Origin: a virus
Lineage: Duplodnaviria; Caudoviricetes
Strand: one strand, 5' to 3'
Virus record (IMG/VR): IMGVR_UViG_3300010162_000373
Location: 68,865 to 132,864 of that record
Length of the DNA stretch: 64,000 nucleotides
The notes beneath the pieces were generated by a model, which had not been told where the DNA came from, did no database searches, and worked only from the letters and a program-made list of their open reading frames with translations. Shown piece by piece: positions 1 to 13,428 of the stretch. The position numbers were made by a program, and so were the translations under genes. Each line of letters begins with the position of its first letter. Within the stretch, counting starts at the first letter, position 1.

Positions 1-88
1 GCACACCAGATAATATCTTCTACTTTATCTTGAAGCTCAATAAGAATTTCTTCTATTGGCTTACTCAAATCAAATTTTAATTCGCTCA

Positions 89-934
89 TTAGTCTTTAAT
101 GTTAAACATGGGCATTACACCGCCCTCTCCGATAAGTAATGTTTGTGGTACGTCTCCATTCCAGCGATTAATAGCTTCCCACAGTGCCAGCTGAGGTTTA
201 GCATATTCGAGACGCATACGCATTGATTCAGCTTCCGCTTCAGCTTTAGCTAAAATCGCGCCCGCTTCTCCCTCCGCCTTAGCAATCGCCTGCTTAGCTT
301 CAACCTCGACTCGTAGAAGCTCATTTTCTGCACGCAAGAACGCCTGCTCAGCTACTACTTTTTGTTCAATTGCTGCATCAAACTCTCGACTGAAATTAAA
401 ACTCACCACGTTTACCTGAGTTACGATAATTCCGTAATCTGCCAATCGCGTCTCAAGAATTTCCCTCATTTGCTGTGAAACTTCTTGTCGCTGCGTAATA
501 AGTTCCTCAGCTGTAAATCTAGCAGTCACTGCTTTAAATACTTCAGCTGTGCCCGGCATAATTACAATTGATTCATAACGAATTCCAATATTTCGGAATA
601 AATCTACAACTTGTGTGCGCTCCAGGTGATAATTTATGATGATCGACGAAGTGACGGTTTGCAAATCTCTTGAAGCAGCTTCGTTACCAGTAACCTCAGC
701 TTTCTGAATTCGAGTATCAATACTATGCACTTGTGTCAAGAAGGGTGCTACAAAATGAATTCCTTCTGTTAACTCTGAATCACGCGCAGTGCCTAAAAAC
801 ACACTAACGCCTACATAACCGGGCTGTACAATACGGATAGACTTAAACGTTCCTATTACAATAAGCAGAATAAAAATAGTTAAAATTGTCCATTTAATAA
901 TAGGTTTTGCTTCCTCCCATTCACGTTGCGACAT
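89..934 (-). CDS. SPFH/prohibitin (band 7) family membrane protein
   Basis: N-terminal TM then IVQPGYVGV...EGIHFVAPF, ASRDLQTV, FTAEELITQR, FSREFDAAIEQKVVAEQ, AEGEA; start moved to MSQREW (GAGGAG SD upstream). Confidence 0.93.
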   Translation of the reverse strand: MSQREWEEAKPIIKWTILTIFILLIVIGTFKSIRIVQPGYVGVSVFLGTARDSELTEGIHFVAPFLTQVHSIDTRIQKAEVTGNEAASRDLQTVTSSIIINYHLERTQVVDLFRNIGIRYESIVIMPGTAEVFKAVTARFTAEELITQRQEVSQQMREILETRLADYGIIVTQVNVVSFNFSREFDAAIEQKVVAEQAFLRAENELLRVEVEAKQAIAKAEGEAGAILAKAEAEAESMRMRLEYAKPQLALWEAINRWNGDVPQTLLIGEGGVMPMFNIKD

Positions 935-990
935 TGCGATCTCCTCTAATTGTTTAAGGTTATTAAAAAATTCTATTTGTTTATTTTTTC

Positions 991-1374
991 TCATTTAGGG
1001 TCAGATAATTCGCAGCAAAAATATAACGGGATGCTGCCGTCCTCATTAGTAGTTACTGGATTGTGATGAGACGGCATATACATGTCCCACGTATAACCCC
1101 TAACTAACCATTCTTTAACGTGCTCAACTATGCGCACAGCATCTAGATCATCTTTTTCATATGCTTTCTTTAAACTACCATTAAAACTTTCACCACCATA
1201 TTCAAAAATAAATTTTATGACTGTATAAAGATGTGTTTCGCGCACTGCACGGTACGCTTCTTCTTGCGACGCATACCCGCCGGATTCCCAGCGCACAACA
1301 TTTTCTTCTTTTGGGCCAGGAATGCATAACTTAAAAGTATACTTAAGCGGCTTGTTAGGGCTTTTTAACGACAT
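991..1374 (-). CDS. Hypothetical protein
   Basis: 127 aa ORF overlapping the upstream gene in a co-oriented run. Confidence 0.65.
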   Translation of the reverse strand: MSLKSPNKPLKYTFKLCIPGPKEENVVRWESGGYASQEEAYRAVRETHLYTVIKFIFEYGGESFNGSLKKAYEKDDLDAVRIVEHVKEWLVRGYTWDMYMPSHHNPVTTNEDGSIPLYFCCELSDPK

Positions 1375-2107
1375 TAGCTAATCTCTCCTTGTTGCTCTCA
1401 AGAAATTGCATTATTTCCGCAAGTAACTGATCCTTCTTTGCTGCTGTGCGCGTCGTTTCCCAGCCGCCCTGGTTATGAACATAGTTAATGAGCCGATACA
1501 TAGACACAAACTTATCTATACCATTGACTATCCGTTCATTTTGACTGCGCAACTGTTCTTCAGCGACCGCTATCTCTTCAAGTTCAGATAAATTGACAAC
1601 AATTTTAAATTCCTTACAAAAAGCTTTAAGGTTATTTAATTGCTGATAATTTGAGAAAGTATATCCTTCACGCGGGCCTATAACAATGGTAGTATAAGGT
1701 TTTATATTTCCTCCCGAAGTATATATGTACCTAACGCGCAATATATTACCGCCCTCAAGAATTAAATCGTGCCCGTACAACGAAGATGGCATCACAGCTG
1801 ATGTCCGGTAATTTGTAAAATCATTTATATCAGGTGACATAAATTTTAATACAAATTTACCGCTATCTTTTTCCATAAAAACTGTGTGCGGTAAAGAGAG
1901 AACATAACGCAACAAAATTACTTTTATCTCGTCCTGTTCAACAAACTTATGCAACTCCTTATTTTTTGCAAAATATTCGGCAGCACTATTTTCATAATCA
2001 ACTTCAAGACGCGCTAGTTCAAAAGTTCTATCTATATATTTTCGAACAACAGCGTCAGCTTGTTTTCGAGCCCCATCGCATTGCAACCCAACTAAAAAAT
2101 CAGACAT
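1355..2107 (-). CDS. Hypothetical protein
   Basis: 250 aa ORF overlapping the terminase stop by 8 nt. Confidence 0.75.
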   Translation of the reverse strand: MSDFLVGLQCDGARKQADAVVRKYIDRTFELARLEVDYENSAAEYFAKNKELHKFVEQDEIKVILLRYVLSLPHTVFMEKDSGKFVLKFMSPDINDFTNYRTSAVMPSSLYGHDLILEGGNILRVRYIYTSGGNIKPYTTIVIGPREGYTFSNYQQLNNLKAFCKEFKIVVNLSELEEIAVAEEQLRSQNERIVNGIDKFVSMYRLINYVHNQGGWETTRTAAKKDQLLAEIMQFLESNKERLANVVKKP

Positions 2108-4067
2108 TTATTTCAGTTCCTTCAATTTGGTCAATAAGCTCTTGCTTAAGTTCCTTAATATTTGAATAAGATAAGTATTGTATTTCAGGGTACTTTCCCC
2201 TTAATACGTGAGTATAAAAGTAATGAACCCCGTAACAGCAGCAAGCAGTAAAGTCATCGGGCTGTTGAGAAGTGGCGCTACGAATAATAGTATATACATC
2301 AGAGGCGAAATTCGTACTATGCTTGTCCTCAACAAGCGACAAGAAATCATCCACCAATCCAAGCTTACCTCCTTCAACTGTGTCATACTGAAAAAACCTA
2401 ACATATCCTTGCTTTATGAAAGAAATCAACCACATCAAGCCCCTAGCTTTATCTAAATTATAGCCTGACCTGTCCCCCGTGCGCATGTCACCAGCTACCC
2501 ACTGGGCAATAGCTCCTCGACGTATTCGACAATAATATATACGACAAAAGACATCGTCTGGAACTCCGAGCATACGCAACTGTGTCTCACGAGCTGACCC
2601 GCTGCCCTGTCCGTCATGAACAATCTTAGTAGCTAAGAACATTTTTTTGATGTTCAAGATGGTACCTATTTCTTTTTCATGATCATGCGGAGTAAGAGAA
2701 CGATAACCAAAAGGAATATCAATCTTACCGTCATAACGCAAACAACAAACCGCAATAGTGGTGAAGGAAACTTCGTTAGCTCCTCCACCGCCCCAGTCTA
2801 CGCTAATTATTACATCTTGGTAAATACCGGTTTTAAATTGTTTCTTAACGTGCTCAGCTGCCTCTTGGATACGATTGACACTTGTGGGCAGCTTACACGC
2901 CTCCTTTAATTCAGTAAGTGTAATAAGTCGGGAACTGCCGTCATAAGATACGCCGCATATTTCGTTATAAAATTTAGCAGGAGTCGTATTATCCGCACCT
3001 TCCCGATAACCCAATAATTTATTCCAAGAAGCGCTGTCTTCACAGTGCTGAGGCAAGACTAGCTGAGGTACATGGTAGCCTACATTTTCCCATCTCTTTT
3101 CTGGGTGCGCATGTACCCACATACCTTGTCTAGTATCCAGCGGTTTACCGCATCTTTTCTTTTGCCCGGCCAGTAGGCCAGCACAGACAATACCAGGAGT
3201 TTCTCGACTTACTTTCCACCTAGGCACACGAGGCCCAATCATCGCATCCAAATCTGCATCAAGGCTAGGATTATTCCAATGACCGCAACTAGCGCAGCGA
3301 ATGCACCATTCAGCTTTGCTGCTAATAGCCCAGTATTGCTCCATAGTGTTGTCCATGGTTTTGGGTGTACCGAAACGTCGTATAAAACGTAAATGGCGAG
3401 GAGCAGAAGCTGCGCACTGATTAATAATAGGAGGATATTCAGGATCAAAGTCACCGATTTCGTCGTAGAAAATTGCGTATGTTGAAATACCTCGACATCT
3501 AGTTACAGAAGTAAAGGCGTATGAGAAATATAAAATTGATCGATTTATGAAATCGCGTTGAAGGATCGAATCAGAACATTGTGCATTTACCATGAGACCT
3601 CTAATCGGCGACTCATGAATAAAAGGCTTCACATAGTTCTGAGATAATCTTCGCACCTGCTCAAACAGCGGCGTCACTGTTAATATTCTCATGTGAGGTA
3701 TTAACATAGCTAGTCCCACCGCCGATGCCGCTATTGTCATGCTCTTTCCCACCTGACGGCCGGCACATATCACAGCATTGGACGCAATTTGGGTTGAGAA
3801 AATAGGCTCAAAGAAAAAATGGCGATCTAACGTGTAAGGCTTCTGGTCGAGATTAAACATCAATGGCAAAACATTTACCATCGATAAATTTACGCCCTCT
3901 AGAATATTAGAAATATTCTGTAAAATTGTTTTAGCGTTATCATAATTAACTTCACCAGTTTTTATGGCCTTAGCTAATGTACTGAGCTGCTTTCCTTCTA
4001 TTGAGCTGGTGCTTTCACCAGCTCGAACCGTCCTGACTTCAGGTGACGGTAATTTTATGCGCGTCAT
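2100..4067 (-). CDS. terL: Terminase large subunit (GpA-like)
   Basis: Walker A AGRQVGKS, Walker B AIFYDE, FGTPKT coupling motif, CxxC zinc ribbon, GYHVPQL, FYNEICG, nuclease VDWGGG and C-terminal PDD. Confidence 0.92.
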   Translation of the reverse strand: MTRIKLPSPEVRTVRAGESTSSIEGKQLSTLAKAIKTGEVNYDNAKTILQNISNILEGVNLSMVNVLPLMFNLDQKPYTLDRHFFFEPIFSTQIASNAVICAGRQVGKSMTIAASAVGLAMLIPHMRILTVTPLFEQVRRLSQNYVKPFIHESPIRGLMVNAQCSDSILQRDFINRSILYFSYAFTSVTRCRGISTYAIFYDEIGDFDPEYPPIINQCAASAPRHLRFIRRFGTPKTMDNTMEQYWAISSKAEWCIRCASCGHWNNPSLDADLDAMIGPRVPRWKVSRETPGIVCAGLLAGQKKRCGKPLDTRQGMWVHAHPEKRWENVGYHVPQLVLPQHCEDSASWNKLLGYREGADNTTPAKFYNEICGVSYDGSSRLITLTELKEACKLPTSVNRIQEAAEHVKKQFKTGIYQDVIISVDWGGGGANEVSFTTIAVCCLRYDGKIDIPFGYRSLTPHDHEKEIGTILNIKKMFLATKIVHDGQGSGSARETQLRMLGVPDDVFCRIYYCRIRRGAIAQWVAGDMRTGDRSGYNLDKARGLMWLISFIKQGYVRFFQYDTVEGGKLGLVDDFLSLVEDKHSTNFASDVYTIIRSATSQQPDDFTACCCYGVHYFYTHVLRGKYPEIQYLSYSNIKELKQELIDQIEGTEINV

Positions 4068-4082
4068 AGCCTATATTATAAG

Positions 4083-4328
4083 CTAATCCTCGTCCTTAGC
4101 TACTGGACTTATCGCAACTATCTTTTGCTCAGCTGTAGAATCAAAATCCCAGTAAAAGTTACCGACCTTTAATTCGTCTCTCGTCGGATCAACATGAAAT
4201 CCAGACGACGTATTCATATAAAAATAGTTTTTAACCAAGTCGGCAGCTTGTGCCCTGCCTTCTGCCTTAATATATACTTCGCCGCCAAATGTGAATTGAA
4301 CATCTAGCTTAAATGTCTGTGTACTCAT
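4083..4328 (-). CDS. Hypothetical protein
   Basis: ORF 4083..4346, likely ATG start MSTQTF at 4328. Confidence 0.65.
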   Translation of the reverse strand: MSTQTFKLDVQFTFGGEVYIKAEGRAQAADLVKNYFYMNTSSGFHVDPTRDELKVGNFYWDFDSTAEQKIVAISPVAKDED

Positions 4329-4350
4329 GTGTAAAAGAGAGGTCAATGGT

Positions 4351-4378
4351 AAAAAGGGGCTCCAAGTTCTTTGGAGCC
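4351..4378 (-). terminator. Intrinsic terminator
   Basis: GGCTCCAA-agaac-TTGGAGCC followed by ccTTTTT on the minus strand. Confidence 0.75.
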
Positions 4379-4384
4379 GTATAT

Positions 4385-4558
4385 TCAGAAGAAATCGCAG
4401 TATGCACAGCTAACTAGATGACTTACCGCAAGGAAAAAATTCTTGTTTTATATTCAAAAAGTTGTATCAGTTACCCAATACGCATAATCAAACTATAAAC
4501 AAGAAATCTTCCTTGCAGTAAAGTCACCTAGCTAGGCGCATACCGCGATTTCTTCTGA
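4385..4558 (-). repeat. Long imperfect inverted repeat / predicted RNA hairpin
   Basis: Arms 4385-4452 and 4494-4558 are near reverse complements (TCAGAAGAAATCGC ... GCGATTTCTTCTGA). Confidence 0.9.
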
Positions 4559-5884
4559 TGGGACGTTGACGGTTACTGTTTGACCGCCCAACGTTAAATC
4601 TTTTTCTCCTTTGAGAGCTTTTGCCGCTTCTTCATAGCTTTGAATCACCATGTCAGCGTCAATCCACTGTTGCCAGACTTCAAGCGTCTTTCCAATCTTG
4701 GAAAGATCTTTCCAACGCTTTGAACCTTCTTCCAGTGTATCCCGTTGAGTCATTAACTCATCATAAAGGGTTGGAGCATAAGAAAAGAATCGCTCCATGT
4801 CGTGACAGCGTAACGCGGCCTGTACTCCCTTTGGGATATGGTTATCGCCGGTTGGTTGATAACCTGTCAGGTAGCCTTTATCAAAAGCTTCCTGTAGTTC
4901 GCTCTCAGGTACGTATTGCCTGTACTTCTTCTGAAGAGTGACCCTTATGACACTGCCTATGAAAAGCGCACTGTCACGGGTTTCATCCACAAAGCCCAGG
5001 TATACATGCCTACCATCACTGATCTCTTGGCGAATGAAGCTGTACACCAGCCGAGTGATAACATTGTACAGCGCGGGCTTGAGAACCCCGCGAATGTTGT
5101 GCAAAGTTTCCCTTGCGACGTAAATGTTACATCCGGTAGAATCTTGGATGAATTGCAACATGGCGAGGTAAACCTCTTTCTTGGTATTCAAGAAATCCAA
5201 AATACATCGGCCTTGTATCCTGTTACCATCTTGATCCACACGGTAGTCGCAGAGAAGCTCACCATAGCGTGCTTCTATACCGTCTGTGAACTCCACCAAC
5301 TGTTCTTCAACGGAATTTACTCCGTCGGGATACCAGCATTCATTCAGCGATTCAAGCCCGTGCATCGACAAAAGTCGAATGGAATGCACGCCTTCGATGT
5401 ACGAAGGTCTGCCGTCTTTGTCCTTATCCTTGATCTCTCTGGTAGAGAAGATCACTGTCCTTTTACGGAACAGTTCGAACTGGCCGGCAAAGAGTTCCTG
5501 AAATCGCCCGATCTCATACACATCCCTGTCATAGCCGTTTCCAGCATGAGCCTGAACATGTGTATACCGTTTATCGTATGCGTATTTCTCAGAACGCATA
5601 GGAGAGCGTTGATAGCGCTTTTTCTCGTCAGCCACGGTTTTCGGCTGAGAGCTAGGTTGCCCTTTGGGGGGATTGGTGGGTGTCACCACAGCAGCCTGAA
5701 TCTCCTGTTCGCTACTGGTAATGGACTGACTCCCACTGTCGGGTAGTCCATTTGTGTTGGTCTCTGTATCACCCTCCTGGGCAATGACATCGGAGGAGAC
5801 CGATTGTTGTGTGTTGAGGTGTTCCTCATCATTATAAACTCCTTCTAAATAATTTACGTTAGTGGTTTCTGCTGATGTAATCAT
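4532..5884 (-). CDS. Hypothetical protein (accessory cassette gene)
   Basis: 450 aa ORF, disordered N-terminus, own upstream motif and downstream terminator, visibly more GC-rich than its neighbours. Confidence 0.85.
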   Translation of the reverse strand: MITSAETTNVNYLEGVYNDEEHLNTQQSVSSDVIAQEGDTETNTNGLPDSGSQSITSSEQEIQAAVVTPTNPPKGQPSSQPKTVADEKKRYQRSPMRSEKYAYDKRYTHVQAHAGNGYDRDVYEIGRFQELFAGQFELFRKRTVIFSTREIKDKDKDGRPSYIEGVHSIRLLSMHGLESLNECWYPDGVNSVEEQLVEFTDGIEARYGELLCDYRVDQDGNRIQGRCILDFLNTKKEVYLAMLQFIQDSTGCNIYVARETLHNIRGVLKPALYNVITRLVYSFIRQEISDGRHVYLGFVDETRDSALFIGSVIRVTLQKKYRQYVPESELQEAFDKGYLTGYQPTGDNHIPKGVQAALRCHDMERFFSYAPTLYDELMTQRDTLEEGSKRWKDLSKIGKTLEVWQQWIDADMVIQSYEEAAKALKGEKDLTLGGQTVTVNVPSEEIAVCA

Positions 5885-5988
5885 TCAGTATTCCAAGCTA
5901 ACTATTTGCCCTTTTTGCCCGCCAACCGTGACGCCACAAAAATCATAAAAAGCATCGTGCTTATATGAACTAAGAGAGCTTAACAACT

Positions 5989-6002
5989 ATATATGCCATA
6001 AA
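5989..6002 (-). promoter_or_regulatory. Class II promoter-like motif TTTATGGCATATAT
   Basis: Identical 14-mer at 46259-46272 (+); both lie upstream of stand-alone accessory genes. Confidence 0.6.
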
Positions 6003-6004
6003 CT

Positions 6005-6613
6005 CTAAGAAGATTTAAGAATCAGCTTATTTTTAGCTGCCTTTTTGCGAGACGCTTTTTTCACCGGTTTTGTGTCTGTTGACTTAATTACTGTCTTAAC
6101 TACACCCGCCTCCTCAGCTGCTTCCCTAGCTAACTTATTTTCAAAATGAGCTGGATTAATAAAGATTTGAGATTTCTTAGCCAATTCCTTTTGTTTTTCA
6201 GCCTCAATCGCCATTTCCTTACGCCACTCTTTTTTAGCTTCTTTTAATTCCTTATCCGTTTTGCGAATTAGTCCGCCACCCTGTTCGTCTTGTAAACAAG
6301 CTACGTCGTAAACTTTAGTGCGAAATTCATTAAGAAAATTCCAGATAACAGTTTTCGTAACGTGATAATCCTTAGGATTTTTCTCCATATCCCTAAGAAA
6401 TAGTTTTAAAGCTTGAGCTACCCTCAAGAGAACTTCCTGAGGATGACCGTAGCTAGGTTTACTGTCAGGCTTATTTGGATCGGCACACATTATCAGCCCG
6501 CCTTCGGCCCAATATTTTAGAGGTTTCTGCCCAGACTTAATCATAGCTGGAAATTCGACCGTATTATTTTGAGTATGATGCCGCTGACCAGCGTATGAAA
6601 TTATCTTTGACAT
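6005..6613 (-). CDS. Hypothetical protein with Lys-rich C-terminus
   Basis: 202 aa ORF, basic tail KPVKKASRKKAAKNK. Confidence 0.75.
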   Translation of the reverse strand: MSKIISYAGQRHHTQNNTVEFPAMIKSGQKPLKYWAEGGLIMCADPNKPDSKPSYGHPQEVLLRVAQALKLFLRDMEKNPKDYHVTKTVIWNFLNEFRTKVYDVACLQDEQGGGLIRKTDKELKEAKKEWRKEMAIEAEKQKELAKKSQIFINPAHFENKLAREAAEEAGVVKTVIKSTDTKPVKKASRKKAAKNKLILKSS

Positions 6614-6690
6614 ATTCTGTTTTTAAGGTTCTTTTCATCGATTATAATAGGAATAGTCATAGAAGCCAAGTCTCCGCGATAGAATTTTCG

Positions 6691-7734
6691 ATGAATTTCC
6701 CCACTTCTGAACTTATTTCATTTGGTAAGCAATTTGGCCTACCGTCTTACATTAAGGCAGCTTCCACAAAGAACTTTGAAGAAATAAGCGATCCGCAAAC
6801 CAAGGTCGGTTGCTATCTTGCAAAATTCGCTTCCCTCAACGGCACACAGCATATTTCTACTTCGGAGCTAAATAAAAGAGCACAAATCCTAAATATTTCT
6901 GAAGATATTGCACAATTAGATCACGATTACAGGGCATTTCAAAACCCAGCCCCTATAAAAACAGCAGCCCCAACCGAAAAGTATCCAATCAGAAACGCCA
7001 ATGAGTACATAGCGGCGCTTGAATGGCTAAAAAAGAATGCATATGCCATTCCTTTACCGGAGCGACGAGAACTGGCGGAAAACCTGCTCGAGAAAGCAGC
7101 TTCTTTTGATGTTGAAGCCGATGAATGTCTAACTATGTACGCCGGCCAGCGGATTGGAGATATAAAACAAATAATTCCTAATTTGTTGAAGAGAGCTGAA
7201 TTAATACGAAATAGCCGACTTCATCCAGTTAGCGTAAGGGAAAAAACGGCAAGTGAATTGGAAGCGGTAGCTGAGCTAGCTAACCTCCAGCCAAATAACA
7301 CTTTACAGCAAGACAATTTAGATAAAATTGCTGCCACTTTGCAATTTATCGACAATGAGTACGGACTACAAGGTCATTACTCTAATGGCTTCATCAATGA
7401 GCCTGACGCAGTTTTTGTTCACGGCACGAAAGTAGCTGAAGATATTCTCGAATATGGCTATCAGTATCACGATGCTGTATACGACATGCGAGACTTTGAG
7501 CAAATTAAAGTAGCTGCCATCATTGAAACTTTAGGAGAAGACTTCGCCAGTGTAATGACTGATGGATTGTCACTTGATCATCAAAAGATCGGAACAGTTC
7601 TTAGCGTAATGACTGACCTAGAAAAAACTATGTTTAATGACTTAATTAAAGAAGCGGGTATTAGACCAAAGTTTTATCATAGAGAAACAGTCAATCTTAA
7701 AGAGTTGGGCAAAGAGTTAGCTAATTTGGCATAA
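6691..7734 (+). CDS. K-x-A-rich putative head assembly/internal protein
   Basis: Long ORF, probable start MNFPTS at 6691; many KxA motifs (KAA, KFA, KRA, KTA, KNA, KIA, KVA, KEA). Confidence 0.75.
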   Translation: MNFPTSELISFGKQFGLPSYIKAASTKNFEEISDPQTKVGCYLAKFASLNGTQHISTSELNKRAQILNISEDIAQLDHDYRAFQNPAPIKTAAPTEKYPIRNANEYIAALEWLKKNAYAIPLPERRELAENLLEKAASFDVEADECLTMYAGQRIGDIKQIIPNLLKRAELIRNSRLHPVSVREKTASELEAVAELANLQPNNTLQQDNLDKIAATLQFIDNEYGLQGHYSNGFINEPDAVFVHGTKVAEDILEYGYQYHDAVYDMRDFEQIKVAAIIETLGEDFASVMTDGLSLDHQKIGTVLSVMTDLEKTMFNDLIKEAGIRPKFYHRETVNLKELGKELANLA

Positions 7735-7861
7735 CTTTTAAAATTTTTCTAGAAATTGCGTAAAGTGGCAACATAGCTAGCTACTTTGCGCTATAATTAC
7801 GTATAGTCAGGTTCACGACATTAACTGCCCGCGTGCCCCGCGTCAACATTGGGTTATGTAT

Positions 7862-7896
7862 TCGCCATGCTAGCCGGTAACTCATGGCGATTTTTT
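7862..7896 (+). terminator. Intrinsic terminator
   Basis: TCGCCATG...CATGGCGA followed by TTTTTT. Confidence 0.7.
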
Positions 7897-7902
7897 ACGT
7901 CT

Positions 7903-7939
7903 AAAAAAAACGGGAGCTAGTAGCTAGCTCCCTTCTTTT
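7903..7939. terminator. Bidirectional intrinsic terminator
   Basis: A8 - GGGAGCTAG tag CTAGCTCCC - TTCTTTT between convergent genes. Confidence 0.8.
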
Positions 7940-8133
7940 CAGTTCTCACCAGGCAGCTTCGGTACATTAATAGTTCCGATGTTGGTTAGATCTATAGTGT
8001 ACTGTCGTTTCTGACAAGTTCCGCACTCGTAGCATCCGCCCCCTGTTATGAAGGTATCGCACCGATGCTTATATGATGGCGGCTGAATAGATTTAGTCGG
8101 CTGCGTAGCCGGCTGTGTAATAACTGGAGACAT
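7939..8133 (-). CDS. Small Cys/His (putative zinc-binding) protein
   Basis: SD GAAAGGAA before ATG at 8133; HRC...CYECGTC motif; 64 aa. Confidence 0.7.
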   Translation of the reverse strand: MSPVITQPATQPTKSIQPPSYKHRCDTFITGGGCYECGTCQKRQYTIDLTNIGTINVPKLPGEN

Positions 8134-8513
8134 GATAATTTCCTTTCGGTCATGTAGTATCAAATAGGTGCCATAATTTTTGATACTGAATTATTACATA
8201 GGCTGCATTAGCGAACATAAAATAAATATTAGTTTCGGGAATCTATGATTCTGACGGCGATCAGTTCAGTGAACCTTGTGCCGCTCTAACCTACCTCTAA
8301 CACTATTAACTAATGCACAAAGCGTGTAACAGAAGATGCGTCCCGTCCGTAGACTAATTGGGTAAGCGCCATACTCCTAACAAGTTAAATAAACATAAGT
8401 AACCGTTACACACAAATTTATTTACCTTAACTGCCGCTCTTTTTAATAACTAAAAAAGACACTCAATGTGTCAACTAAAGATATATACCTTTTAAGTAAA
8501 AAAAATTAAAAAA

Positions 8514-8586
8514 TTGCGGAGGTTGGAAGCGAACCAACACCGTTCGGGCTTATGAGACCCGTGAGATACCACTTCTCGACTCCGCA
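8514..8586 (-). tRNA. tRNA-Met(CAT), initiator-like
   Basis: Acceptor TGCGGAG/CTCCGCA + discriminator A, D stem GAGA/TCTC, anticodon arm CGGGT-CTCATAA-GCCCG, T arm GTTGG-TTCGCTT-CCAAC; CCA not encoded. Confidence 0.9.
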
Positions 8587-8710
8587 TCCTATATTTTATC
8601 TACCGCTAGCTAGCTCACCCAAAATCCATTCGTGGCGTCAGTAGTTTAAAAAGAATAGATTATATCCTTAGATATAATCACACTTTTAATTACCTTAAAA
8701 ATCACTATTT

Positions 8711-10309
8711 TTAAGGTCTTGGACGAGAACCTATAAGCCAAGAATGTGAGCTACCGGATGGCTGAGGCGGCGGTGGCGGCGCAGGTATATTTATTGGAAA
8801 AGTTCTAGGCGGCGTTATTTGAATTGGCGGCCCAAAATGATCGATGTTGTCACAGCTCATTACAGAAGTACAACGAACTTCGTTATTATAGTGTTCACAC
8901 CACGGTAAATCTATATTAGAAAAAATAGCCTCAGCCGTATAGCCGCAATTATCCCAACAAAAACTTATTGCACCACTCCACGTGCTGTGTGCTGCTATCT
9001 CAGGTATTCTAAAATTAAATGAAGGATAGTCCCCTTCAATAATAGCGTCATATACCATTATTCTTTTAACCATCCCGCCAGTGCCATCACTTACAATTTT
9101 TAAATTAGGTGTTAGATCGTAAATACTTTGATTAGATGGGTTACTGATACTAAACCCAACAGTAGTCATAGTTTTACCCGGAATGCACCGTACTTTTACT
9201 AACGTTTTTAAACGTGCTGTAATCGTACTATTATAAAAATCATAAAGCTTGTAATAGAACTCCGTTAAATATTTTAAATATTCAACCTCGTAAGCATGAA
9301 TAATTCCCAATCTATTTATTTCATTTATCCAGAAAGCATATTCATCGCAGCCGCAGCAGGCGGCACAATCATTTCTTATTCCAATTTCATGAGTGCCTAG
9401 TACAGTATATGGTTCGCCGGGACTGCCTGAAAAACCTTCTTCTTCTGGAGGAAAAGATGTAACGGCAAGACAACCACCATCTCCCTCAATATAAAAATTA
9501 TTATTTGTGTCACCCTCTTGTTGATTTATTGTTCTTACCATAACACCATCTGCGGCAGCTATCTGCTCTCTAGTCGGATAGGTACTTAAAGTAATGGTCT
9601 TGTCTTCAACATTGGCGTATATCCTTCCATGCTGATTATTCTCGTCTGGAATAAGATTAAGAATCAAATCATTGCGGTGAGGTATATCAGCTGCCGGGCG
9701 ACCAGCGTCCACATGATAAATATTCTTAACTGCCGCAGCCCAACAACGAGAAACTAATTTAGTACGATTGCCGTTTTGTGGGAAAATAAGAGGTAAGGTT
9801 GTGTCATTTGCAGTAGTATACTCTGAATACCGGACTGTATTACGTCCTCGCATATCACTAAAGAACCAAAACCCTTCCCCTAATGGAGTTACGTTTAAAT
9901 CATCTGTATCTAGAATAATTTCATTAGCTTCATTTGTAAATACTAGCCTAGGAAATTCACGAGGAAGCTGAGTAGCAAAACCACTTAAATTAGAATCAAT
10001 AAACTGCTCCCATTCAACAAATGTCCAATTATGCCAGTCCGTAGCTAAGCTAGTGCCGCCTGTGCGTGTTATTTCGACAAAAACAGTTCCGGCAACAGGC
10101 TGTACAAATGTAACAAAAATATCTGAGACTATCCCAGCTAAATTACTGTGTCCGTCAAATGGGTAGACAGTCCCGCCCTGATTTTGATTTATATTTATTC
10201 CTTGCCGCCCTAGCTCGTTATAAACCGGTACGTTAAGATTTGACGCAAAAGGTAAACTTGCGCAACGTTGCTTAAAAGCTTCAAATCTTAAATGGATGTT
10301 ATTAATCAT
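8711..10309 (-). CDS. Putative virion/baseplate-associated protein with CxxCCGC motif
   Basis: 532 aa; TINQQEGD...NFYI...CL and CAACCGCDE motifs shared with the neighbouring gene; Pro-rich tail. Confidence 0.65.
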   Translation of the reverse strand: MINNIHLRFEAFKQRCASLPFASNLNVPVYNELGRQGININQNQGGTVYPFDGHSNLAGIVSDIFVTFVQPVAGTVFVEITRTGGTSLATDWHNWTFVEWEQFIDSNLSGFATQLPREFPRLVFTNEANEIILDTDDLNVTPLGEGFWFFSDMRGRNTVRYSEYTTANDTTLPLIFPQNGNRTKLVSRCWAAAVKNIYHVDAGRPAADIPHRNDLILNLIPDENNQHGRIYANVEDKTITLSTYPTREQIAAADGVMVRTINQQEGDTNNNFYIEGDGGCLAVTSFPPEEEGFSGSPGEPYTVLGTHEIGIRNDCAACCGCDEYAFWINEINRLGIIHAYEVEYLKYLTEFYYKLYDFYNSTITARLKTLVKVRCIPGKTMTTVGFSISNPSNQSIYDLTPNLKIVSDGTGGMVKRIMVYDAIIEGDYPSFNFRIPEIAAHSTWSGAISFCWDNCGYTAEAIFSNIDLPWCEHYNNEVRCTSVMSCDNIDHFGPPIQITPPRTFPINIPAPPPPPQPSGSSHSWLIGSRPRP

Positions 10310-11233
10310 CTATATTCCTGTGACACTGAATGTCGAAGCCAGCTGCACTAATTGTTGCTCTAATTTTTGCTGATATAGCCTCACCTCGTTATTAGCCTGC
10401 AGTAGATTTTGAATTCCCTGTTTTATAACGGATAACTCCTCGCAGCCACAACAAGGGTCACAGCAAGTTTCAGTTAATACTACTGTGGAAGCATTTACGT
10501 CATTCTCCACCTGTAAACACGGCGAATGCGACACTATCGCAATATTTCCGTCCACATCGGGCGGCACCATATTTATTGTCTGAATACATCTGCGCCGCTC
10601 AATAACGTCGTTAATAACACGACTAATACGCAACTCAGTGCTTTGTGTTTCATTATCATAGCTTTCGTCTATTTTTATATTTTCCCCAGCTACTATTTGA
10701 ATATCTCCGTATATAGGGGCATGAGCTGCGCCATTTTCAATTACGGTAATAGATGTAACTGCGGCAGAAGAAAAAGACACTACATCAACATCAAGCTGCG
10801 TTGCGGGTAAGTCAAAAGAATAATCCCCTAACATCGAGCGCACTTGCTCAAAAGTTCCGACTGTAACATGCCCCGACAAGCCTTTCCAATTATTCAATGC
10901 AATAATCGGAACAGTAATATTTAAATGATCATGCGTTCCTAGGTCTATGGCAGTCACTGTTCCAACTTTTATGTCGCCCTCATTTCCGCGATAATTAATA
11001 ATAAAATTAACTCCGCCGTGATAAACAGTAAGACGACTAATATAAAAATTAGCTACATTCACTTGCTCTGGAGTAGCATTAACCACTATTTTGGCTGCAA
11101 CAAGAAAATTATTTGGAACTGCCGCTTCCTGTGCGCCAATATTTGGTGTTTTTGTTGCTCGCTCGGCAAAAGGGTAGCTACGATTTGCATTATGATGCAA
11201 AAATTCTTGATTAATGACTCCAATTACTACCAT
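10310..11233 (-). CDS. Putative virion/baseplate-associated protein with CCxxCCGC motif
   Basis: 307 aa; TINMVPPDVDGNI...CL, CCDPCCGCEE then coiled coil. Confidence 0.65.
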   Translation of the reverse strand: MVVIGVINQEFLHHNANRSYPFAERATKTPNIGAQEAAVPNNFLVAAKIVVNATPEQVNVANFYISRLTVYHGGVNFIINYRGNEGDIKVGTVTAIDLGTHDHLNITVPIIALNNWKGLSGHVTVGTFEQVRSMLGDYSFDLPATQLDVDVVSFSSAAVTSITVIENGAAHAPIYGDIQIVAGENIKIDESYDNETQSTELRISRVINDVIERRRCIQTINMVPPDVDGNIAIVSHSPCLQVENDVNASTVVLTETCCDPCCGCEELSVIKQGIQNLLQANNEVRLYQQKLEQQLVQLASTFSVTGI

Positions 11234-11655
11234 TAGATTCTAATAATACGCTCGACCTCTACGGCGTTATTATGTATTAAGTATACGGATCGTAAAAGAC
11301 TTTGCAAAAGATCCTCCATTCGCAATAATACTCTGTTAGCTTCTTGCATCGTAGGGCGAATACCTCTCACTATTGACTTACGGAAAAACGGACGATCACA
11401 CGGCTCATTAGCTGGGTACTCGAATACGTCAGACAATGTGCATACAGTTATAAAGTGATCTCGTGTAGAAGCCTCTCTATTAATTCTTGAGCTTGGTCGC
11501 CGCTTAAATAAAAATAATTCTTTTGGAAAGCCCTCAATTCCAGATTCGAGAATTTCATATGTGACAAGATACCCAGTCTCATTAAGAATATCATCCTCAT
11601 GGACAGTTATTGAGTGCCTGACTTTTAATTCGTATTTTGGTGCTTCTTGTTCCAT
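11233..11655 (-). CDS. Hypothetical protein
   Basis: 140 aa, TAATG-coupled on both sides. Confidence 0.75.
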   Translation of the reverse strand: MEQEAPKYELKVRHSITVHEDDILNETGYLVTYEILESGIEGFPKELFLFKRRPSSRINREASTRDHFITVCTLSDVFEYPANEPCDRPFFRKSIVRGIRPTMQEANRVLLRMEDLLQSLLRSVYLIHNNAVEVERIIRI

Positions 11656-11948
11656 TACAATATCTCTTGAAAATTATTACCCACCAACGCGCCGTTTATT
11701 ATTGGCCTGCTTAAAGGATCTAGCTCCTGCCCGCCTGTTTTTACCTCTACCGCAGCTCCATCTCTATTTATTTTAAACAAATCCGCCTCATTTGCACTTT
11801 CAGTTGGAAACACTGCGATTACTTGTCCAGGATAGGACGGCCCTGTCGCTACGTATTGGTCAAACGCAGTTTTAGCCGGAGACACACTAGAAGCATCTAT
11901 TGCCCTTCTGGTTGTTCTTTGAAACTGTGTTATAAAAGGTGTTGCCAT
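11655..11948 (-). CDS. Small fibre adaptor-like protein
   Basis: Aligns by eye with the N-termini of 41913, 42309 and 43205 ORFs (PGQVIAVF...DLFKINRD). Confidence 0.65.
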   Translation of the reverse strand: MATPFITQFQRTTRRAIDASSVSPAKTAFDQYVATGPSYPGQVIAVFPTESANEADLFKINRDGAAVEVKTGGQELDPLSRPIINGALVGNNFQEIL

Positions 11949-11949
11949 A

Positions 11950-13428
11950 TTAAACCGTTAAAGTGAAACGATCACTGCTTTCAAACGCAAATTCATTAAA
12001 ATTAAAATACACTCGATAATCAACCGGTGAGAAATTGTTTAAGCCCGCCACCGGTACAATAATTTGAGTAAATTCGTGCATAACATTAGACCCCAACCCT
12101 GCTTGCACTATTGATTGAGCAGCTCTTACAGAAGCTGGGTAGGCGAAAGCACAACCCCGTGCGCCCGCCGGCACATCCACAAACATAGTGTTACCGGCAA
12201 CAATGTTTAACGCCCCTTCATTAAGTAAAGTACGCAGCTGATCACTAGACATTCCTACAAATGGAGCTGCGGAAGTTAACGGCCCTAAAAATCCTCTGCG
12301 TTGCGCAAGGTATGTTACATTTACTGTCCGAGGCGTAGTGCCAGCTAAAATCCTGCCAGCAGGGCTTGGATTGCCTGCTGTATCATTTTTAATCGGCCCC
12401 TCAGCATACTGTACTTCAGCATTAAATGAAGTGTTACTAGTTAGCTGAAAACTTGGCACAGTAAAATTGCCAACCGCATTACTCGTATGGATTGGATTTG
12501 GGCTGCCAGTATTAAATAGTCTGAAAGCTATAACCGCGCCAGCATCATTTTGATTCCAGATAGGCTGTAACACAGGAGAAATATTACTACCTATTTCCCT
12601 AGCTAATGGCGTAGTGCCAGTGAGCGTTAATGTAGGCATAACATAAATAGCCGGTAAAACAGGGTCTAATAAACGTCGTACAAAATCTTCTAATGAAATG
12701 CCAATAGGCACTGTGTTCCCGACTAGCCAGCCGCCAGCTTGTTGTGTGACATTTATATTGTTAGCTGAATGTAGTATTGGCCATTCTAAATCATCTAAAT
12801 TTGCATCCTCCCCGGCAGGCCCTTGTGGCCCAGTTTCGCCTCGTTCTCCGGGATCACCTTGATCGCCTTTATCCCCCTTTTCCCCAGGAAACCCTCTTTC
12901 TCCTCTATCTCCTTGATCACCTCTTTCACCCCTATCTCCTTGATCGCCTTTGTCTCCTTTTTCACCAGGGTTTCCTTGATCGCCTTTATCTCCTTGCTCA
13001 CCTTTGTCTCCTTTTTCACCGGGCACGCCTCGAGGAATACCAAAAACTATAAAAGGATTTTCATTAGTTCCAGTTCTCGTTGCCGTAGCTGCAGCTGATG
13101 GAGCTAATGTAATTGCGCTTACAGATATATTAGGCGCGGCACCAGGTACGCCCTGTGCGCCCGGAGTTCCTGGAGGGCCAGGATTACCAATACCACCTCT
13201 TGGCCCCGGCGGCCCAGCAGGGCCTGGGGCTCCTGCGCGACCAGGTGGGCCGGGGTATCCAGGCGGCCCAGGGCCGCCAGGCGGCCCCTGTAAGCCTACA
13301 ATCCAAATACCCTCAGAATTAACAGGTACGCGTAACTGATCCAACGTCCTCAACTCTGTTCCATTAGGGTCAAATACGCCATGACAATTAGTCCGAATTA
13401 AAGCTTGTGATACAGGTACTGTTCGCAT
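11950..13428 (-). CDS. Collagen-like fibre protein
   Basis: Two Gly-X-Y runs (GPP-rich, then [12 protein letters not shown]-rich) and a beta-rich C-terminal domain. Confidence 0.88.
12805..13290 (-). repeat. Collagen Gly-X-Y coding repeats
   Basis: Degenerate 9-nt periodic repeats at about 12805-13035 and 13135-13290. Confidence 0.85.

Follow-up and report, generated by a model that had tools for sequence, protein, structure and literature searches.

The stretch of DNA analysed here, hereafter the window (64,000 nt), is the last 64 kb of a 132,864-nt IMG/VR record that is rated 56% complete, and proteins of the window are also recorded on a 225-kb contig. The source is an uncultured large termite-gut phage with a genome of probably about 225 kb. 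DNA of this phage was present in five DNA sequencing runs from termite gut metagenomes of three studies, three of which runs may be its source, and a search for RNA runs that contain it found none. Most long genes of the record are encoded on the minus strand (48 of the 49 ORFs of at least 250 aa), which carries, in this order, a 202-aa gene, a promoter-like site, ORF450, a long hairpin, a terminator, ORF87 and terL.

The terL gene (2100..4067, minus strand) was assigned to the gpA type of large terminase subunits by family matches. It is separated from the hairpin by ORF87 (4083..4346, minus strand), a small orphan gene whose likely start is the ATG at 4328. The conserved 202-aa gene (6005..6613, minus strand) forms the upstream edge of a spacer of variable content. 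Its homologue is fused in frame to TerL in one related locus (L027), because of which the 202-aa gene is probably packaging-associated. The 202-aa protein matched no Pfam or PHROG family, and its AlphaFold model (pLDDT 63.4) gave 0 BFVD matches at E <= 0.001. A PADLOC match of this protein to GajA (E 0.002, 14.8 bits) was disregarded as weak.

In the window, the spacer holds ORF450 (4532..5884, minus strand), an orphan accessory gene that runs with its 3' end into the hairpin and is preceded by a sigma-70-like promoter match (TTCATA-16-TATGAT; 5942..5969, minus strand) that is a match to the consensus only. ORF450 matched no family in Pfam, PHROG or PADLOC, and a search of 5.8 billion proteins at near lengths gave no homologue. 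Its Atlas model, with a pLDDT of 0.33, is of poor quality and yielded no feature match that could be used. The codon usage of ORF450 is phage-like, being the best of the six frames and close to that of TerL.

Two further features of this end of the window are the sole tRNA gene in the 64 kb, a tRNA-Met with a CAT anticodon (8514-8586, minus strand), and a gene for an SPFH/Band 7 protein (89-994, minus strand; PF01145, E 1.1e-27; phrog_200), which lies three genes downstream of terL and is an unusual neighbour for packaging genes.

Structure of the hairpin at 4385-4558

A first-pass annotation of this DNA had described an inverted repeat at 4385-4558. The repeat is indeed present, with arms that are 95% complementary at 4385-4405/4538-4558 and 72% complementary at 4410-4448/4497-4535. 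Folded as RNA, the minus strand of this segment has a minimum free energy (MFE) of -96.9 kcal/mol (z -15.95; none of 200 shuffles folded as well) versus -66.7 kcal/mol for the plus strand (z -11.28), which bears out the strand difference proposed by the annotation. The lowest MFE found in 380 control windows of 174 nt, taken from either strand of the same genome, was -68.9 kcal/mol, and an ungapped stem scan allowing G-U pairs over all 132,864 nt reached a score of at least 18 at the hairpin locus only.

The whole hairpin (4385..4558, minus strand; 174 nt) contains 73 bp, comprising a 60-bp main stem and a 13-bp apical extension. The main stem is formed in the RNA fold by a 5' arm (4497..4558) and a 3' arm (4385..4448), and consists of four helices (23 + 15 + 13 + 9 bp), whose sole interruptions are two bulges of 2 nt and 1 nt and a 1x2 loop. 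The 48 nt that separate the two arms (4449..4496) pair as further helices of 6 and 7 bp with 3x3 and 6x6 internal loops, and are capped by a GUAA tetraloop (4474-4471). There are exactly six G-U pairs in the main stem and five more in the apical part (11 in total). The number in the main stem agrees with the six transition differences between the arms that had been reported to give G-U pairs on the minus strand, and in the plus-strand fold the G-U positions become A-C or C-A mismatches or internal loops. In addition, the 5' arm contains the last eight codons and the TAG (4534-4532) of ORF450, as the annotation had read it. The Rfam comparison that the annotation had suggested gave no family at the gathering threshold; the best of the covariance models was mir-7, whose score of 32.3 bits against a threshold of 51.8 is a generic hairpin match.

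Six nucleotides after the long hairpin lies an intrinsic-terminator-like hairpin (4348..4378, minus strand; stem 4378-4358) with 8 bp (5 GC) and a U-run, and this structure with its T-run at 4378-4348 is the separate terminator that the annotation had placed behind the hairpin. It is overlapped and followed by a conserved block (4329..4356, minus strand) composed of CTTTTTACC (4356-4348) and the variant CTTTTACAC (4337-4329), the latter abutting the ATG at 4328. This block, whose motif can be written CTTTT(T)ACC, is treated below together with its counterparts in related phages.

Hairpins and variable spacers in related phages

TerL relatives with 54-71% identity were found on metagenome contigs, and the closest TerL proteins were P0003 (75% identity) and P0005-P0010 (63-69%). 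Four close relatives (TerL 68-69% identical; L027, L029, L030 and L031) have at least 1 kb of sequence upstream of terL. L028 has 148 nt upstream of terL, with no hairpin in those 148 nt, and L032 and L034 are cut within terL. In L028, the end of a gene (1-148) whose C-terminus resembles a KTSC domain directly precedes terL. Scans of IMG/VR with the single proteins ORF450 and TerL and with alignments of the 202-aa and 379-aa families gave no match, an IMG/VR scan with a TerL alignment found relatives at <=41% identity only, megablast of positions 3000-7000 against cultured phages gave no match, and tblastn of TerL gave 25.6% identity at best.

A long hairpin on the gene strand was found upstream of terL in three of the four close relatives, and the stems range from 57 to 81 bp across the hairpins. 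The hairpin of L031 (5777-5947) has an MFE of -93.3 kcal/mol on the sense and -66.3 kcal/mol on the antisense strand (z with flanks -14.95), that of L030 (738-925) -106.0 and -80.5 kcal/mol (z with flanks -14.47), and that of L029 (4756-4893) -62.6 and -44.4 kcal/mol (z with flanks -7.33). L027, whose upstream sequence was scanned as well, has no hairpin, and among the more distant TerL relatives (<=54% identity; L033 and nine further loci) an outlier hairpin was found in 0 of 10. Rfam gave 0 matches at E <= 0.01 in L027, L029, L030 and L031.

The four hairpins cannot be aligned with one another (12 invariant columns only), and each matches only itself in the 514 kb of sequence compared. What they have in common is their position. 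All four have their start close to the stop codon of the upstream ORF, in the range from 24 nt before it to 10 nt after it. In the window, 24 nt of the 5' arm precede the TAG, in L031 the stem takes in the stop codon alone at its base, and in L030 and L029 the stop codon is 4 and 10 nt upstream of the hairpin, respectively. A U-rich tract follows the stem directly in L031 and L030, U7 follows 5 nt off in L029, and the separate 8-bp terminator follows 6 nt off in the window; the terminator scan cannot score stems with large loops. What we observe at these loci is a strand-specific fold that is conserved in shape, position and genomic context without conservation of sequence.

The CTTTT(T)ACC motif occurs 11-34 nt downstream of the hairpin at all four loci, at 5962-5970 in L031, at 936-943 and 953-960 in L030 and at 4927-4934 in L029. 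The block often has two copies about 17 nt apart. In the window and in L030, one copy is immediately adjacent to the start codon that follows. In L031 the motif supplies the -35 half for a TTTACC-16-TATAAT match, whose end is 8 nt from the ATG of terL. Across the genome the motif occurs 12 times, on both strands and near chance, and a role as a genome-wide promoter motif was rejected (2 and 1 occurrences in the window against 2.92 and 0.95 expected). The block could be a promoter specific to this locus, with TTTACC resembling a -35 element; alternatively, it could provide the context of a translation start or be a repeat bound by a protein, for example a recognition site of the terminase.

The genes in front of the hairpin differ as well. 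L029, L031 and L027 have conserved counterparts of the 202-aa gene and of a 379-aa gene in divergent orientation, and the content of the spacer between the 202-aa gene and terL is different in every phage, the ORFs that flank the hairpins being non-homologous. The spacer consists of ORF450 in the window, a 348-aa ORF unrelated to ORF450 in L031, and several small ORFs in L030. In L029, ORFs of 295 aa and 90 aa precede the hairpin and a 345-aa ORF (4924-5961) directly follows it. The latter carries a Tad2-like (Thoeris anti-defence 2) domain (PF11195, E 2.5e-8). The other spacer ORFs matched no Pfam, PHROG or PADLOC family. The Tad2-like ORF suggests that the spacer before terL is an anti-defence or accessory island in this phage group.

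In L027, the homologue of the 202-aa protein and TerL form a single ORF of 785 aa (3141-5498), with neither spacer nor hairpin. The 202-aa gene and terL are separate in the window and in three other relatives, with variable orphan genes between them. The two arrangements may have arisen either by the splitting of one gene ("genes in pieces") or by a later fusion of two. A group I or group II intron splitting the terminase gene was rejected, as no intron family matched in positions 1-12000 of the window or in the four relatives and the N-terminus of the split TerL is itself conserved. Since L027 is devoid of both spacer and hairpin and the spacer content is variable, the hairpin seems to belong to an accessory spacer that divides two functionally linked packaging genes.

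Several TerL relatives (L031 6001-8406; P0007, P0009 and others) reach lengths of 800-1,084 aa and contain domains of inteins and homing endonucleases (PF14890, PF14528). Because of these domains, the terminase locus can be considered a hotspot of mobile insertion.

Selection on the fold and possible functions of the hairpin

The excess of G-U pairs on one strand has to be read against the composition of the genome. In the control windows, the minus strand folds better in general, with a mean advantage of 5.4 kcal/mol (sd 7.7), and the G-U share in MFE folds of the genome is 15.1% on the minus strand versus 10.6% on the plus strand. Under this background, the probability for the window alone is 0.05 for six of six G-U pairs and 0.022 for 11 of 12. 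Because of the general bias of the minus strand in folding and G-U content, the G-U asymmetry of the window's own hairpin is weak evidence. The same correction for one-strand folding and G-U bias is needed for wobble-asymmetry arguments anywhere in the record.

The relatives supply stronger evidence. Summed over the four hairpins, the sense folds contain 41 G-U pairs (11, 9, 11 and 10) and the antisense folds four (one each), and only nine 1x1 mismatches occur in the four hairpins, one A-C and eight other. The probability of 41 of 45 G-U pairs falling on the sense strand is 5.8e-6 under the G-U bias of the genome, the null rate being that of the window's genome and not of the relatives' contigs. 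Neutral decay of a palindrome should give about equal numbers of A-C and G-U together with many transversion mismatches; the observed pattern indicates that selection maintained pairing on the sense strand through a complete turnover of the sequence. Selection appears to act on the fold as such, as the same shape occurs in the same region in unrelated sequences among the relatives.

The first-pass annotation had argued from the window for selection on RNA structure rather than on DNA symmetry. Selection on a single-stranded fold of the gene strand is upheld by the 41 versus 4 G-U pairs of the four hairpins, and the window alone is suggestive and insufficient. Of its claim of covariation, the strand-specific G-U pattern holds across the four hairpins. 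For strict covariation the sequences give no support, as the homologous hairpins cannot be aligned and near-identical strains are invariant: contigs of four DNA runs showed no variant, indel or joint across 3600-6000, and so there is no population-level covariation to read.

The reading that we favour, with about even confidence, is that the hairpin is an RNA element at the 3' end, or boundary, of a transcript, which would terminate and stabilise the upstream message and is probably a substrate of RNase III. The hairpin would form the 3' end of the ORF450 message read from the minus strand, and together with the U-rich tract or terminator behind it would end the transcript of the accessory gene. 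The transcript ended there would be kept out of the packaging operon, whose expression would restart at the conserved block downstream. The duplex of 60-80 bp would also block 3' exonucleases and so protect the 3' end of the message. Where a message reads through, host RNase III might cut it at the hairpin, after which the two units would decay independently. An RNase III site requires that the transcribed strand form double-stranded RNA over about two helical turns or more, and the 60-bp main stem is located on the strand of 48 of the 49 long ORFs.

From these features we infer transcription, termination, cleavage by RNase III and an effect on message stability. The processing site and the stability element proposed by the first-pass annotation are the readings that best fit the context of a stop codon followed by a U-tract or terminator. 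Neither an RNase III domain (PF14622) nor a dsRNA-binding domain (PF00035) was found in the 132-kb record, which is about 56% of the genome, and so any cleavage would depend on the host. Long hairpin RNAs expressed in E. coli and Sinorhizobium were processed into shorter dsRNA fragments, and in E. coli HT115 this processing persisted despite the loss of RNase III, according to the accessible text of that report (PMC6627737).

Several observations speak against the boundary element. The window already has a separate ordinary terminator after the hairpin, L027 manages without a hairpin, and G-T pairs would favour the same strand as single-stranded DNA too. Its main weakness is that the length of the stem is unexplained: 60-80 bp far exceeds the needs of termination, exonuclease blocking and RNase III recognition, which hints at a further function.

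Such a function could be that of a double-stranded RNA in its own right, either a position-conserved structured RNA resembling the cabRNAs or a dsRNA decoy or anti-defence RNA of an accessory island, which would bind a host or phage protein and do more than end a message. We consider this reading unlikely; the released dsRNA decoy or sRNA that the first-pass annotation had proposed may apply. A dsRNA with its own function would account for stems of 57-81 bp, beyond the needs of a terminator or of RNase III, and for the retention of shape and place without conservation of sequence. The surroundings are also suggestive, as the hairpin is located between terL and the 202-aa gene whose homologue is fused to TerL in L027, and a Tad2-like anti-defence gene immediately follows it in L029. 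In staphylococcal phages, cabRNAs are structured transcripts of the terS-terL region, and CBASS cyclases sense them; as far as the accessible part of the source describes them, they form hairpins without shared sequence, and recoding them costs fitness (PMC10686824). The same part of the source describes cabRNAs of about 400 nt with several hairpins within the terS and terL coding sequence, in contrast to the one intergenic duplex of 60-80 bp found here. Moreover, the 202-aa gene has no family or fold match that would make it terS, and L027 has no hairpin. A long perfect duplex is also expected to be degraded in bacteria, judging from the available text of PMC6627737. Somewhat less likely again is the more specific proposal, made by analogy, of a dedicated phage dsRNA at the terminase junction, which would be either a counterpart of cabRNA in an unrelated lineage of large phages or a decoy in a Tad2-adjacent anti-defence island. 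On that proposal, the 60-80 bp and the abundance of wobble pairs would serve the binding of a protein and at the same time keep the DNA from being a perfect palindrome.

The fold might instead act as DNA, as a packaging site associated with pac or cos, as an attC-like recombination site at cassette boundaries, or as a priming or replication signal, to which we assign a similarly low probability. The element adjoins the terminase genes and a conserved short repeat block, and its strand asymmetry fits G-T pairs in single-stranded DNA, since folds computed with DNA parameters reach -47.5 kcal/mol on the minus versus -37.1 kcal/mol on the plus strand (z -12.5). It also lies at the 3' end of variable gene cassettes and has kept its structure and not its sequence, as do the attC sites of integrons, which are found at the 3' end of cassettes and have a conserved structure without a conserved sequence. 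However, attC sites fold from the bottom strand, whereas the sense strand folds here, and the hairpin lacks their R/L-box layout with an unpaired central spacer near the base, its basal helix of 23 bp being unbroken. Neither a tyrosine recombinase (PF00589) nor a reverse transcriptase (PF00078) was found in the 132-kb partial record. That the hairpins are so closely tied to stop codons and to a U-tract or terminator is a feature of transcription, and a packaging site would be expected to keep its sequence, of which the four hairpins share none. A retron msr/msd was also rejected, as PF00078 is absent from the record and the neighbours are ORF87 and terL.

Distinctly improbable is a selfish or accidental palindrome, that is, a MITE-like insertion or an inverted duplication that arose with the acquisition of accessory genes and is only tolerated. 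Such an origin would suit a recombination-prone spacer whose gene content is different in every relative, the different sequence of every hairpin, and the overlap of one arm with the end of an orphan ORF. On the other hand, the hairpin is single-copy in the 132-kb record, the pattern of its ends has 0 matches in IMG/VR and one non-folding chance match in 185,579 species genomes, and its flanks contain no target-site duplication. Four independent insertions of unrelated palindromes at one locus in the same orientation would be unparsimonious, and the observed 41 G-U pairs against one A-C and eight other 1x1 mismatches run counter to the expectation of neutral decay. A MITE- or REP-like repeat was rejected on its single copy, the lack of further copies and of a duplication, and the selection pattern.

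A recoding signal, in which the stem that encloses the TAG (preceded by 24 nt of the 5' arm; the stop codon of L031 is in the basal helix) would drive readthrough or frameshifting at the end of ORF450, as the first-pass annotation had also proposed, is very improbable, because readthrough would add only 12 codons before the next in-frame UAG, the hairpins of two of the three relatives (L030 and L029) lie wholly after the stop codon, that of L031 takes in nothing but the stop codon at its base, and known recoding stimulators lie a few nucleotides downstream of the recoded codon and do not enclose it.

Comparison with known systems

Structured elements of phage messages are known mostly from a few model phages and were usually found through sequence conservation. 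Between phages with TerL proteins about 68% identical, the sequence of the present element has been completely replaced, and what is kept is a duplex of 57-81 bp on the same strand, positioned after a stop codon and followed by a short motif. The comparison gives strong evidence for an RNA element conserved in shape only, at the border of the packaging operon with an accessory spacer that changes fast and is partly anti-defence. A boundary or insulator module, if the hairpin is one, would show how foreign genes can be taken up by large uncultured phages beside essential late genes without disturbing the expression of the latter. Should the long duplex have its own function, it may provide a link to the question of why phages make structured RNAs from terminase genes that immune sensors can detect. 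As a simple and portable structure, it is also a candidate part for use as a strong terminator, a stabiliser or an RNase III target. No description of such a hairpin was found in the literature searched.

The R sites of T7 and T3 and the sib retroregulator of lambda are RNase III processing hairpins of phage messages. They resemble the present hairpin in being an intergenic duplex of the sense strand, longer than two helical turns and located at a gene boundary, where cleavage would uncouple the messages. In contrast, the stem here is two to three times longer, nearly uninterrupted and then followed by a terminator, and it is a predicted substrate. It also has no sequence or Rfam similarity to them and occurs once per genome rather than between many genes. 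Indeed, a T7-type recurrence between cistrons is without support, with one such hairpin in 132,864 nt.

Positive retroregulators and the REP, ERIC and Correia/NEMIS elements are imperfect palindromes in 3' untranslated regions that protect from exonucleases or attract RNase III. With these the hairpin shares a long imperfect palindrome in the 3' untranslated region that folds in the message. REP, ERIC and Correia/NEMIS are multi-copy elements with a conserved sequence and terminal repeats, whereas the hairpin here is single-copy and of unique sequence. Compared with integron attC sites, the likeness consists of an imperfect hairpin at the 3' end of variable cassettes, conserved in structure only and specific to one strand. 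The hairpin differs from them in having no R/L boxes or central spacer and in the folding of the sense strand, and no integrase was found in the 132-kb partial record.

The cabRNAs of staphylococcal phages are likewise hairpin-forming RNAs of the terminase region whose location is conserved without sequence homology (PMC10686824). In the portion of that paper available, they are about 400 nt long, derive from terS and terL coding sequence and are defined by activation of the CdnE cyclase, as opposed to the single intergenic hairpin of an unrelated phage lineage described here (PMC10686824).

The closest described logic is, by analogy, that of the PeSL cassettes of T4-type phages, which combine a stem-loop with a promoter and were proposed to stop early transcription of ORFans from spilling into late virion genes, as set out in the accessible text of the report (PMC2839356). 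Both systems would place a stem-loop terminator or attenuator and a promoter-like block beside ORFans in plastic regions, and G-T pairs are described in PeSL stems too in that part of the text (PMC2839356). According to the same text, PeSLs are short, conserved in sequence and present at about 50 per genome, in contrast to one copy here with a stem of 57-81 bp and no conservation of the stem sequence (PMC2839356). The sequence-conserved, many-copy repeat that defines PeSLs was not found in the present record, where the hairpin is single-copy and CTTTT(T)ACC occurs near chance. The function of the hairpin is most likely conventional. We regard it as a variant of the intergenic terminator or processing hairpins of phages, notable for its size, for conservation in shape and position only, and for lying where an accessory spacer within the packaging gene pair has its edge.
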